From assembly GCA_000165345.1 (NCBI GenBank), contig CM000435.1, positions 704,001-768,000 on the forward strand: a DNA stretch of 64,000 bases, written 5' to 3'. Shown here piece after piece: positions 55,001-61,000 of the stretch. Position numbers: made by a program. Numbering within the stretch: position 1 is the first letter of the stretch; each line of letters opens with the position of its first letter.

Positions 55001-58000
55001 CTTGACGTAATAAACTTCGCGACTGCATTATCATGGTTTTGTGCGTATTTGGCGTTGTTCCTCAAATTGAAACGCGAGAAAAACGTAGTTGGGCTTTCAC
55101 TTCAAACAATACTAATGTTAGTTGTGGCTGAATGCAACCACGTATTAATAACAGCTGTTCTCTCATCGCATTATCATGTTGAACTTGGGTTAGATTTTTA
55201 CTTATGCGATTGCTCGACTGCACTTTTGTCCGCTGTCACATTCGCCTACATTTATTTTAACTTCTACGAAACATACGAAAGTAACAGAGACACATTTGGG
55301 TTGAATGTTACAAATTTCATAATTTGTTGGATTTCAAGAGCTGGTAGAAGTAATCATTTTATTCAAAAAAAGAGCAACAAATATTACCCAACTTCTCAGA
55401 AAATCTTTTGGTTGACTGTCTACATCTTAAACTTCTTTCTTGGATCAATAATATTTTTTTTAAGAAAATCCAGCTCACCTCCAATTATATCATTCTGGGA
55501 ATCATACATGGATTCACTACTTTCCTTAGCTTTACTACCACAAATATTTATGTTTTATAACAAGAAACCGCGAAAAGTTTCTTCTCTTCTCGCCCATTTT
55601 GTTGCATTCATACTACTAGCAAGAGTATTTATGCTGTTCTATTGGATATTATATCCGTTATTTAAATTATCAATTGTTCCAGGAAGAAGACTTCATATTT
55701 TCTCGGAATCTTTAAACGTAACTTTCCTAATGCATTTCATGTATTATTTTATAAGATCGAAGCTGAATGGAGAAAATGATATATTCTTACCATTATAGTC
55801 ATACGAAGGATGTAATGATAAATTGGGCATATTAATAAATAATAGTTTTTATTTATAATTAATTTTTATTTGCTTTTTAACGGTTGACTTAACTGCATTA
55901 AATGCACACTTAACCACCATGCAATGTCATAATAAAAGTAACAAGATCTCCATCGCTTAAAGCGTAATTTTCTCCGCCTAAAATCTCCCAGTCGCAGTTG
56001 TTAACTAGTACAATAATTCCTGGTTTGATCTTTGACCCTGTCTCAATAAAATGATCTTTTCTATACTGAATAATATTTTCTTCTACATATAGAATTAGGC
56101 TCTTCATAGAACTAGATTTTAAGTTATTCAAATTAACCTCAACATTTTGTCTGTCGCCTGCCAGAACCTCCAATCCACCGGAAAATTCCACTTTTATTGA
56201 CATTTTTTAGAGATGCAAAGAAAATGACTGTAAAAATAACACGACAGATACCTCCGCCATTTTCCCCGCGTAAAAATAGTCTCGATAATGCATGATCTGT
56301 GAATATTACGGCGACTAAACTAAAAATTAACAAAACATTAATATTTGTTAATGTTGTTCCCAAATATTATTTTATAATTAAAATGAACATTTATTGATCT
56401 CTTCTACCTTCTATTTATTTTTATATCAACTTGTACTAATTTATCCAAGTAACTTTGCGGATGAACAAATATGATAAACAATAATATGATAAAAAGAGAA
56501 GTTGTAAACGAGCGTAAGCAGGATTGTGAACATGGTTCAGACATTATAAATAATAAAGATAATATGTTTAACATTACAGTCAATACAGAACCATATGATG
56601 TATTAGAAAATGACATAATGAAAAACAAATCTAGAAAGGTAAATAATTCTTCAAAAAACGGTTTCGAGAGTACAAACATTTCTAATAAAATATTGTCCGA
56701 ATTTACTTGTCCCGTATGTCTCGACTATTATATGTTGCCTGTCACAATTCCATGTGGGCATACTTTTTGTAGATATTGCATTACTCATAACCGCTTGTTG
56801 GGAAAAAAATGTCCAGTTTGTAGGCAACTAATAGGATACAACTTTAGAATAAACATGACGATCCATAACGTTATTGTTTCATTGGGAATTTTCAAACAAA
56901 TAGAGAACTCTTCTCAGGATGAGAGACTTTATAACGAAATCCTACTTACAAACAACGAATTAATAGGTCAGAATCGTCCAAAATGGTGGCAATTATGCTT
57001 CTGCAAACCAATAATATCAGTTACATTATTTGCAAGAATAATTTCTGATGAAATACTAGGAATTGGGATAGTTTTTGCGGAAGACTTAACTCGATGTATT
57101 ATTGACCATCTATCGAAGTTGTCATCAATAATACAAGATAAAAAATTAAAAAGTATGATATGGTCGAACGGTATTTATATGATTGGGCCATTAGAAGTTA
57201 ATTTATTAACAAAGTGGATGGGTTGTCCGCCTCTGCCTTTTAAACTTGATGACAAAGAAACCGGTAATTTGGAAAAAAATTCTGATTTTACTCTTAATAA
57301 TAATGCAATATTTAAAAATCAAGTTAAAAAATGGGTGGAAGAATGCATCGCTTTAAAACCTACAATTTTAAATATTGGCCAAAGCCCCTTTACTAAAACA
57401 AGTACATACCCTATATTACGTATACTAAGCGATAGAATACATCGTGTGGAATCAAAAATATATGACTTAGGAGCTCTTAGGTCTCCTCTTCCTTGGGATC
57501 TTGGAAGGCATTCTAAATCTACTATCCAAGTTTCTCACTCGTCTGTAAGTACAAATCACTTATTAATAGTAAACATTAAAGAACACGACCAAGTTGCTCA
57601 AGAATTGAAATACAAAAGTAACACTTCACATAAATTTGATGAAAGCTCTCCAATCGAAAAAGATTGGGGTATTGGGGTAATAGACTTAGGAAGCAGTATT
57701 GGAACAATGCTAAAAATTCAACCCAAGCACCGACTTGCAACAGATGAAGTAATTCACTTGGCGGATAGAGTTGAAATAATTGTTAAAATTCGAAAAATAG
57801 AAGAAATAACGAACGAAGATAATTTAAATGGCGATAGCAGAATATTAATTAATGAATGGAAAAAATTACGTTGGAGTAATAAATTAAATTTAGTTATAAA
57901 CATTGATGATTATAACAAAGGTGAACATAAAACCATTAATAGAGCTAAAAATAGTGATTTTGAAGACTTGTTTGGGATCTGCAATGACAAAGATAAATTA

Positions 58001-61000
58001 GATTCAAGTGAACTCTCGCAAGAAAGCAAAATTGTCCAAGTTCCTTTGGAGGAGTTGGAAATCGAAGAAATTAAAGAGTGCTTAGAAGTTTATATTCCAA
58101 TTGGGTCAAAATCTTTTGTTCCATGTGAGGGGGCAAAAAAAACAGAAAATGGCATGTACTGGTCCGTAATTGTTCATCCTTCTGGGATGGTATTTGGCCG
58201 AGGGAAAAATGGAGCTCTTGGTTTGAGAAAAGTAGAGGTTACAGAAAGTAATGGATATATTAGCAGAGAACATTGCATTTTTTACTATTCATCCATAAGA
58301 AATAGGGAATATGAAGGCCTTGACTATTTGAGTAGATCTAATGGATGCTTATCAAATTGGTTTGTTAAAGACGTCTCAACATCTGGTACATTTTTGCGTT
58401 TAAAACCATTTAGCTATCCAGTTAGAGTATTGCCCGGTATGGTTCTTAAAGTAGGACAATGTAAGATGGAAATATTGCCATATATGATTGGTGCTTTGTA
58501 TTCTGGACAACCAAATAGTAGTGTTAGAAACAATTCCATCAATCTAGTGTCTCAAGACTTCCAACCAATTCAAACAAACTTAACTGAAGTTGAATCATCA
58601 CAAACTCATGTTTCAAACACGAATCAAATTCCAATTCCTTATTTAAGCAACAGTGCCTTATTTACTCAAACCCTTAACGATCAATATTTATCTAATATAA
58701 ATAACAATGTGATTGCACAATTAAATATTTTAGCTGCATATAATTATATTAACAGCTCATCTATAACGAATTTGGTTAATTCTAATAACATCGTCGAATT
58801 TAATAATCAAACTTATGAAGATAGAATAATTCAAAGACAAAATTCATCTTTTGATAATATTATTTTGCAGAGTATATTAAGAAATTCAATAGTAAATAAC
58901 AATATATTGTCTGCCGGCCACTACTTAGGAAATATTCAAACTAGTGAAGATAATTCTATTACTGGTGGGTCAATCGGCTCTCTGGAGGTAAATAGCATAT
59001 TAAATTATGATAGAAGGCCAAGGGAACCAAGAGTTACACAAGAGGTGGATGTTTCGTTCCAAATAGAAAGTTTTGAAAATGAAGATTGTTAAACGATATT
59101 AAATTATTCAAATTGATTTTATATATTCAAGTTATTTACTGTAATTTAGCACTTGTTAATTACATACTTCTAAGGTAGATTCTAATAGTATTTTTCTAAA
59201 TTACAAATTTGTCTAAACTCAATTATATCTTTTGGAAGGTTTTCAATAGTCTCTGCCATTACTACTTGAACATTTTTAAGAACTTTATCGAATTCTGAAA
59301 TTGCAACTTTATGTCCTAAGAATTTTACAATATCCAGCCACTCTGCATGAAATCGTATTGCACAAACACTGAAAAGCTCAGAAATTGTATTGAAAGAAAA
59401 TTCATTGGTTAGTCTCATAAAATTTTTCATTGCTTTCCTGCTTGCTGAGACATTTGGAACTCCAGGAATCTTATATATACTTGGAATAAAATTAAGATAA
59501 AGGCATATCATAATTGAAACGTTGATTAGCGCTGTAGAAAGCGGATATGAAAAATTCATTTGATCAATTTGCGAACTATTGCTTATTTCGCTAATAGTTG
59601 ACCTTAACTCTGTAACTTTTGGTAATAACGGCTCGAAGTTACTACCAAATTCTTTTTTTGAATCTTTCATATTTATTGGAGTGGTGATAATACTTAAATT
59701 ACTAGATGAAGGCTGAAAGTTGTGTGGGGTTTCAAATGGACTCATCATGCCATTAATTTTGTGGGAATTGATAATAGATCTTTGAATGCTATGCTGGTGT
59801 GAGTATTTAATTTTTTCACTCGAAGAAAACCTTTGGGATTCTTTAAGGATCACTTTAAATATATTCCTATAATTTTCCGCAAAATAGACCAAATTTTCTA
59901 AAGTTAATAATTCTGCACATTTAAAATCGAATCTTGGATCATCATTTTGGAACCCTAGCAGCCTCCAGTTACTCGAAATTCGATTTATTTCTGGATAATC
60001 CGGATATGCTAACGCCCAATAGTCTTGAAATAGCTGCTCATGATTGGGATCGGCACAATTCAAAGAAATTAGGCATTTATTGCGTATATAGTGTAATAGC
60101 TTTCTTTCTTTTGATAGTTTCCAAAACCGATTGATGATAGATATTTGTATTTTATTATATATTGTTTTTCCAGATTTTTCTCTCCTTAGCTTCTCTTTAA
60201 TTATATCTTGAAATGATCCATCCACATGGATTTCATATGAATTAATGGTTATATCGGGAATAAATGAGTTTTTCGTGGTAATATCATGGAAAACACTAGG
60301 TATTTTCCCTTTAACAGTGTCTGGATGTGGCATTAATAACAATTCTAAAATTATTTGACCAGTCCATTAATGCATGCAAATTCTTTTTAGTGTGGAATCA
60401 ATGGTGTGGCGCAAGGTCTATTATCTGTAAAAAATTGTTTCAAAAACAAACATAAATATATTAAGTTGGTGATTTATTTTATTTTATTATTATTTTTTAA
60501 AATCATACTTAAATTACAAACATAGCATGTTATTTTATCTAGTTTTGATTAAATTTCACTATTAAAATAATAGAAGTGCCACATCTAAACTTTATCTGTA
60601 ACCTTTTCAAAATTTTCTTGGTTCTGAGTCTCTAGTCTTTGATAGAAGGAGAATGCAACATATGAAAATGCAATTCTAGATAAAGTTAAGCATGTTGCAT
60701 TTATTAAAAAAACGGCCCAGGCGGGTAAGTTTTCGTCGTACATCGCAGATTTAAAATAAATGTAAAATATTATCGACATTCCAAAAGATGTAATCGACTC
60801 TAATATTAATCTTAAAATAGTATAGACCACGTAATATTTCATAGTAGAATTGTTATTCTTTGTAATCGAATAAAAACCAAGAAGCCCGAACGATGAACAT
60901 ATGATCGAAAAAATGACGAATATTGTACTAACTGTAGCCGACGATGCAATGTCATACGAAGCTTGAATAATAGAGCTAAAGTCAGAAATGCAAACGATAT

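Follow-up and report, generated by a model that had tools for sequence, protein, structure and literature searches.

Ubiquitin ligases that combine a RING finger with an FHA domain connect ubiquitination with phosphorylation in the control of the cell cycle and of DNA damage, in fungi as well as in animals. To our knowledge, most recognizable checkpoint regulators are lacking in apicomplexan parasites, and we know of no mechanistic constraint on domain order in RING ligases. In the known ligases of this type (CHFR and RNF8/Dma), the FHA domain precedes the RING finger. Chfr, a family reported to be vertebrate-specific, carries in addition a poly-Cys C-terminus, and RNF8/Dma a coiled coil between FHA and RING (PMC3637335). 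Here, we describe a Cryptosporidium parvum gene with the opposite domain order, located at positions 56471..59092 (+) of a 64,000-nucleotide stretch of DNA (assembly GCA_000165345.1, contig CM000435.1, positions 704,001 to 768,000 of the forward strand; this whole stretch is referred to as the window). Its product consists of a RING finger, a helical middle domain (MID), two FHA domains (FHA1 and FHA2), and a disordered Asn/Ser tail. Judged from the named sequences, the RING–MID–FHA1–FHA2 arrangement defines a conserved family of Apicomplexa, chromerids, and the squirmid Platyproteum, and appears to be restricted to these. We consider it likely that the protein is a RING-type E3 ubiquitin ligase which acts in a phospho-dependent manner, with higher confidence in the architecture than in the mechanism.

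Gene identity and domain organization

The window is AT-rich (about 30% G+C), with densely packed, long uninterrupted open reading frames (ORFs). The ORF under study is complete, consists of a single exon, and codes, stop codon included, for a product of 873 amino acids (aa) which is identical to the "RING finger protein" of C. parvum Iowa II (EAK90333.1 / QOY40650.1). The C. hominis protein is 98% identical, and the cluster formed at 90% identity also contains a C. meleagridis protein with the locus tag cmbei_7003320. In an earlier survey, cgd7_3320 is listed as a RING-finger E3, orthologous to Plasmodium falciparum PFL0275w and Toxoplasma gondii 20.m03824 (Ponts et al., 2008; PMC2408969). 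Based on the locus tag pattern together with this listing and the product names, the gene is very probably cgd7_3320. The same survey already recorded RING/FHA as an apicomplexan E3 architecture (PMC2408969). The gene is thus annotated and catalogued, yet it has never been characterized. The subregions of the protein are as follows:

56471..59092 (+): complete ORF, 873 aa, identical to EAK90333.1 / QOY40650.1
56471..56692 (+): N-terminal Asn/Lys-rich region, aa 1-74, fast-evolving, predicted disordered
56708..56821 (+): C3HC4 RING finger, aa 80-117 (Pfam PF00097, PDB RING matches, invariant ligands)
56963..57475 (+): conserved all-helical middle domain (MID), aa 165-335 (alignment and model)
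57476..57805 (+): FHA1, aa 336-445 (PF00498, 30.4 bits alone, E 5.5e-7; invariant residues; beta-strands in the model)
57806..58060 (+): linker, aa 446-530 (alignment, model)
58061..58486 (+): FHA2, fold aa 531-672, Pfam match aa 575-662
58487..59008 (+): Asn/Ser/Gln-rich tail, aa 673-846, low complexity, predicted disordered, fast-evolving
59009..59062 (+): genus-specific C-terminal motif RRPREPRVTQE(G)DVSF, aa 847-864

The RING finger

An earlier note on this DNA, made from the sequence alone, had placed a C3HC4 RING at residues 79-118 or so, which proved accurate. The zf-C3HC4 profile (PF00097) matches aa 80-117 (E 6.6e-9), and the PDB sequences matched by the N-terminal region are RINGs throughout, among them TRIM21 (E 1.9e-13, aa 75-152) and RNF8 (1.1e-8). 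Eight zinc ligands with C3HC4 spacing (C80, C83, C95, H97, C100, C103, C114, C117) are invariant in an alignment of the Cryptosporidium and Theileria orthologs (alignment A1), as is R118, which directly follows the last Cys. In a family alignment of 19 sequences, reaching from Cryptosporidium to Chromera and Vitrella (alignment A5), the ligands and the trailing Arg are kept in at least 90%. V/I82 and P115 are conserved in A1 and also family-wide in A5. Based on established knowledge of RING E3s, we take V/I82 and P115 to be E2-contact positions and R118 to be the linchpin. With these positions, which are typical of active E3s, the RING is apparently intact, and ligase activity is predicted from its sequence. 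Helices flanking the RING are predicted at aa 70-78 and 125-137.

Published annotations point in another direction, namely a non-catalytic RING in a zinc-finger nuclear or transcription-associated factor, or even a topoisomerase. Among the transcription-associated proteins surveyed in one study (PMC2821373), PFL0275w is given as "zf-C3HC4 protein," and the ortholog group was annotated as "possible topoisomerase 1" (Ponts et al., 2008; PMC2408969). We regard this as highly improbable. A non-catalytic RING is at odds with the complete set of ligands and with the positions for E2 contact and the linchpin, and Pfam scans of the protein revealed neither a DNA-binding nor a topoisomerase domain. A genuine topoisomerase I gene is found two to three genes downstream (61469..63394) and may be the source of the label, which may reflect a confusion with this neighbor or a mix-up of rows.

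Two FHA domains and a helical middle domain

PF00498 matches the complete protein in two stretches (E 1.1e-12). When the segments were scanned as separate fragments, FHA1 (aa 342-430) reached 30.4 bits and FHA2 (aa 575-662) 27.6 bits, both above the gathering score of 20.7 bits, with FHA1 being the better Pfam match. The earlier note had recognized one FHA-like module at about residues 575-640, roughly 450 residues behind the RING, and had considered that it might turn out to be a generic beta-sandwich that fails FHA profile searches. This module (FHA2) passes the domain search by Pfam profile as well as by fold, and the order of RING before FHA is confirmed, but the interval is occupied by the MID and by FHA1, which the note had missed. 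A fold comparison identified the FHA beta-sandwich fold, with the match tables being silent on which FHA aligned.

In FHA domains, the Arg of the G-R motif and the Ser of S-x-x-H bind the phosphate, the His is structural, and the Asn of the "NG" turn contacts the peptide backbone. The corresponding motifs are G345-R346, S360-x-x-H363, and S408-S-I410-G411-T412 in FHA1, and G576-R577-G578, S598-R-E-H601, and S636-T-S638-G639-T640 in FHA2. For both domains, the G-R, S-x-x-H, and G-T residues are invariant across the 19 sequences of A5. Longer signatures are invariant in A1: P-W-D-x-G-R-H-x-K-S ... H-S-S-V-S-x-x-H ... D-x-G-S-x-I-G-T for FHA1, and G-R-G ... N-G-Y-I-S-R-E-H-C ... D-x-S-T-x-G-T-F for FHA2. 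From the series G-R...S-x-x-H...N-G-T expected in the earlier note, only the Asn is missing; the turn reads (I/S)-G-T, with Ile410 in FHA1 and Ser638 (Leu in some species) in FHA2. The FHA domain of human CHFR, with a sequence confirmed residue for residue against PDB 1LGP, reads D-T-S-T-S-G-T. Because CHFR also has Ser at this position, Ser638 does not exclude FHA membership.

With hhalign, the core of FHA2 could be aligned to the CHFR FHA in register (probability 73%, E 3e-5), and no significant alignment to the CHFR FHA was obtained for FHA1. FHA1 and FHA2 have no similarity to each other that hhalign could detect beyond the G-T turn (probability 2.6%), and a recent tandem duplication is unsupported by this comparison. 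Single-sequence and profile searches of FHA1 and FHA2 against PDB sequences returned nothing significant (NAA60, the ClpC N-domain, and the KAPP FHA at E 0.08), so that both FHAs were detected solely by Pfam profile and fold comparison. Each domain carries a Cryptosporidium-specific loop insert between the S-x-x-H strand and the G-T turn, which is absent from the Theileria orthologs: about 35 aa in FHA1 (aa 367-400, 57569..57670, +), predicted to be partly helical, and about 17 aa in FHA2 (aa 607-623, about 58289..58339, +). In the linker region, a small folded extension of FHA1 (aa 443-482) having an invariant W468 is followed by a disordered acidic stretch (aa 486-521).

The MID has neither a Pfam match nor a significant PDB match. 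Among the residues invariant in A1 within aa 165-335 are W172, W173, K179, P180, D205, L206, C209, W288, V289, and E290, while W172, W173, K179, D205, C209, W231, V289, E290, P297, D321, and H324 are invariant in the family. A full-length AlphaFold2 model computed from 11 sequences was too poor to be used (predicted confidence, pLDDT, 46.5). The core (aa 146-678) modeled from the 19 sequences of A5 reached a pLDDT of 75.5 and a predicted TM score (pTM) of 0.75. It comprises, in this order, an all-helical domain (aa ~147-300), the FHA1 beta-sandwich with its helical insert, a small alpha/beta extension (containing W468), the disordered acidic linker (aa 486-521), and a second beta-sandwich, FHA2 (aa 531-672). 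In this model, the MID is without an evident solved relative, none being present among the listed fold matches.

One might ask whether the FHAs are degenerate, serving as phospho-independent interaction or structural modules (comparable to some kinesin or type-III-secretion FHA-like domains) in a RING ligase that is targeted by other means. The loss of the NG Asn in both domains, their strong divergence from solved FHAs, and the lineage-specific loop insertions in both would fit such a role, as would the pTM of 0.75, which suggests that they form one rigid body packed with the MID. However, the phosphate-binding Arg and Ser, and also the His, are invariant in both domains from Cryptosporidium to the chromerids, which is hard to explain if there is no phosphate ligand, and the Asn position is occupied by Ser in human CHFR, too. 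We consider degenerate FHAs unlikely.

Distribution and conservation of the family

Theileria orientalis and eight Cryptosporidium species besides C. parvum have full-length orthologs. A comparison of the C. parvum and C. andersoni proteins gave 56-64% identity for the folded modules and 20-26% for the N-terminus, the linker, and the tail. A HMMER profile built from A1 was searched against 1.84 billion representative proteins and resulted in 30 matches at E ≤ 1e-30. Domain order was scored with module hidden Markov models (HMMs), which were also built from A1. RING, MID, FHA1, and FHA2 are colinear in all the proteins in which the order was established (P0026-P0042), which range in length from 670 to 2565 aa, and in every one of them the MID directly adjoins FHA1. 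Clustered at 50% identity, the sequences that share this order of the four modules make up about 20 clusters. The length of the FHA1-FHA2 linker differs widely among family members, and the module HMM scan of the family did not detect the linker and tail modules beyond Cryptosporidium and Theileria.

Named members include the piroplasms Theileria equi, Babesia duncani, and Babesia microti, a Plasmodium ovale protein named "zinc finger protein, putative," further proteins from Eimeria, Cyclospora, Cystoisospora, Neospora, Cardiosporidium, Gregarina, Siedleckia, and Platyproteum, and the chromerids Chromera velia and Vitrella brassicaformis. All strong matches that carry a name belong to the Apicomplexa, chromerids, or Platyproteum. 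The search for orthologs with the same order in related taxa, which the earlier note had proposed, was thus successful; the arrangement is shared by Apicomplexa, chromerids, and Platyproteum and is therefore no peculiarity of the C. parvum genome.

Three proteins from environmental or eukaryotic assemblies in the Logan and ENA assembly collections (P0048, P0049, and P0053), found by the profile search, consist of RING and MID only. They may be truncated gene models of this family from intron-containing relatives or may represent a RING-MID architecture without FHA.

Comparison with known ligase families

The RING finger (aa 80-117) precedes both FHAs (aa 336-445 and 531-672), which is the reverse of the order in CHFR and RNF8/Dma. 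CHFR, like the protein described here, contains RING and FHA, and shares with FHA2 the unusual S-T-S-G-T turn (Ser for Asn). Its organization is FHA-RING-poly-Cys/PBZ, whereas that of the C. parvum protein is RING-helical-FHA-FHA with no PBZ; the C-terminal region (aa 673-873) contains a single Cys, and the tail has no zinc-finger Pfam match. From RNF8/Dma1/Dma2, the protein differs by having the RING first, two FHAs rather than one, and a globular helical domain in place of a coiled coil; the intervening helical region is predicted as a compact bundle in the model, no dedicated coiled-coil predictor having been run. RNF8/Dma1/Dma2 are without full-length homology to it, and its own family appears confined to Apicomplexa, chromerids, and Platyproteum.

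Most family members are labeled "E3 ubiquitin-protein ligase CHFR" by UniRef, and one could thus suspect a parasite ortholog of CHFR or RNF8/Dma1, which would act in a mitotic or DNA-damage checkpoint and differ only in the arrangement of its domains. The common domain vocabulary of RING and FHA, the in-register alignment of the FHA2 core with the CHFR FHA including the common S-T-S-G-T, and the presence of the RNF8 RING among the PDB matches are in line with this. Given the failed order test, the lack of a Cys-rich region, the two FHAs, and the family-specific helical domain, we consider the CHFR name to be an architecture-blind automatic label, and an orthology to either ligase to be quite improbable.

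For the RING and its flanking helices, the best sequence matches are TRIM-type ligases (TRIM21, TRIM5, TRIM31), which like the C. parvum protein have an N-terminal RING, a helical region, and one or more C-terminal recognition domains. In contrast to these, the protein lacks a B-box (no zf-B_box match in aa 121-310 at E up to 10, which sets it apart from TRIM/RBCC proteins) as well as the long antiparallel coiled coil, and has FHAs instead of PRY-SPRY or similar domains. Two FHAs in one polypeptide, by which two phospho-epitopes could be read, are also known from Rad53 and other proteins, but Rad53 is a kinase with FHAs flanking the catalytic domain while here both FHAs are C-terminal to the RING. 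The mode of action is most likely that of an FHA-RING ligase (phospho-dependent E3 targeting), with the protein standing outside both known families.

The terminal regions

The low-complexity Asn/Ser tail described in the earlier note is real. The content of N+S+Q in aa 673-873 is 35-47% per 40-aa window, compared to 5-25% elsewhere in the protein, sequence entropy is lower, and the region is predicted to be disordered (pLDDT <50). This Asn/Ser/Gln tail is absent from Theileria and from other family members. Near its end, all Cryptosporidium species examined have the motif RRPREPRVTQE(G)DVSF, with an identity of 56-83% compared to 24-52% for the surrounding tail. This candidate short linear motif was not found in other genera. 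The possibility that the C-terminal DVSF is a PP1-docking RVxF motif was discarded, as it is without the basic residue. At the other end of the protein, aa 1-74 are 20% identical in C. parvum and C. andersoni, with a pLDDT <40.

Genomic neighborhood

Upstream of the ligase gene, the following features were identified:

55910..56203 (-): Urm1 (ubiquitin-related modifier 1), 97 aa, PF09138 E 3.2e-30; a divergent neighbor, not part of the ligase
56204..56470 (no strand): intergenic region between Urm1 and the ligase gene, 267 bp

Urm1 is indeed transcribed divergently, as had been noted, from a shared intergenic region which is 267 bp rather than 268 bp long. C. andersoni shares the gene order CLPTM1 / KDEL-receptor-like / Urm1(-) / ligase / ELMO(-) / ... 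/ topoisomerase I. In Theileria orientalis, the ortholog has different neighbors, and the adjacency to Urm1 is absent. A functional link between Urm1 and the ligase was therefore rejected; we attribute their divergent arrangement to synteny at the genus level in a compact genome and not to a functional pairing that is conserved. The sequence ttttccccgcg between the two genes was suspected to be E2F-like, an idea that was also dropped, the canonical TTTSSCGC having 0 matches in the whole window compared to about 3 expected by chance.

The KDEL-receptor-like ORF (54962..55798, +; PF00810 ER_lumen_recept, E 9.8e-17), which is next to Urm1 also in C. andersoni, matches with 189 residues to a 143-position profile, indicating insertions of about 45 aa. 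The downstream topoisomerase I gene (61469..63394, +) codes for a complete eukaryotic enzyme (Topoisom_I_N, Topoisom_I, Topo_C_assoc; E down to 4e-92). Between ELMO and topoisomerase I, a 181-aa ORF (60585..61130, -) has no Pfam match at E ≤ 0.001, and at the equivalent position no gene is called in the C. andersoni gene list. A 190-aa ORF at 51608..52180 (-) matches UPF0172 (E 1.8e-21) and weakly JAB/MPN (22.8 bits), thus having the appearance of an EMC8/9-like MPN-fold protein. That this ORF, Urm1, and the RING ligase bring ubiquitin-system-related folds together within about 5 kb is probably a coincidence.

Proposed function

In the mechanism that we propose, the N-terminal C3HC4 RING would recruit and activate a ubiquitin-charged E2, and may dimerize via its flanking helices, as seen for TRIM and RNF8 RINGs. 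The MID, being fused directly to FHA1, would form a core together with it. FHA1 and FHA2 would dock on phosphothreonine motifs of substrates or scaffolds that a Ser/Thr kinase has phosphorylated, and ubiquitination would hence depend on phosphorylation. The presence of two readers could allow bivalent or "AND-gate" recognition. The Asn/Ser tail would be a lineage-specific disordered appendage with a genus-specific short motif at its end.

Plasmodium and Toxoplasma data might bear on this proposal. The old ID PFL0275w presumably corresponds to PF3D7_1205500 by our own conversion. PF3D7_1205500 is a low-stringency yeast two-hybrid match of PfPP1 (PMC4794898) and is present in a PfRNF1 proximity list; artemisinin hyper-resistant lines had acquired a mutation in it that was shown to be non-causal. 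T. gondii TGME49_002840 has the same product name as the family member from Neospora (PMC3695809). Under its current ID (TGGT1_202840), it is the second-ranked co-immunoprecipitation partner of the TgPRL phosphatase and has a CRISPR fitness score of -3.54 (PMC9241511). We presume TGGT1_202840 to be the Toxoplasma ortholog. At most, the data on TGGT1_202840 and PF3D7_1205500 hint at a connection with phospho-signaling.

Several points weigh against a phospho-dependent ligase. Because the canonical Asn of the NG turn is replaced in both FHAs (Ile410, Ser638), they could bind phosphopeptides atypically or weakly. In the full-length prediction, the RING came out poorly (pLDDT 35-43). Neither a functional study nor biochemical evidence for a member of the family came out of a literature search. 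Finally, the links to the Toxoplasma and Plasmodium proteins are based on product names and ID conversion rather than on sequence.

The earlier note had gone further and suggested an independently assembled ligase of checkpoint type, a designation for which the evidence provides no support. In its most extended form, the family would be an Apicomplexa/chromerid-specific, fitness-conferring, and independently assembled counterpart of the Dma1/RNF8/CHFR checkpoint ligases, with FHAs that read a doubly phosphorylated mark and thereby couple a parasite kinase/phosphatase axis (e.g., PRL or PP1) to ubiquitination in the unusual cell cycles of these organisms. We consider this a speculative scenario which is rather unlikely to hold. 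On present evidence, this is an annotated but unstudied gene, and no surprise. For a phospho-dependent E3 ligase as proposed here, the RING and the two phospho-readers are conserved, lineage-restricted, and apparently intact, in an architecture without a host counterpart. With the strong fitness score of its presumed Toxoplasma member (-3.54), the family is a reasonable candidate for functional study.

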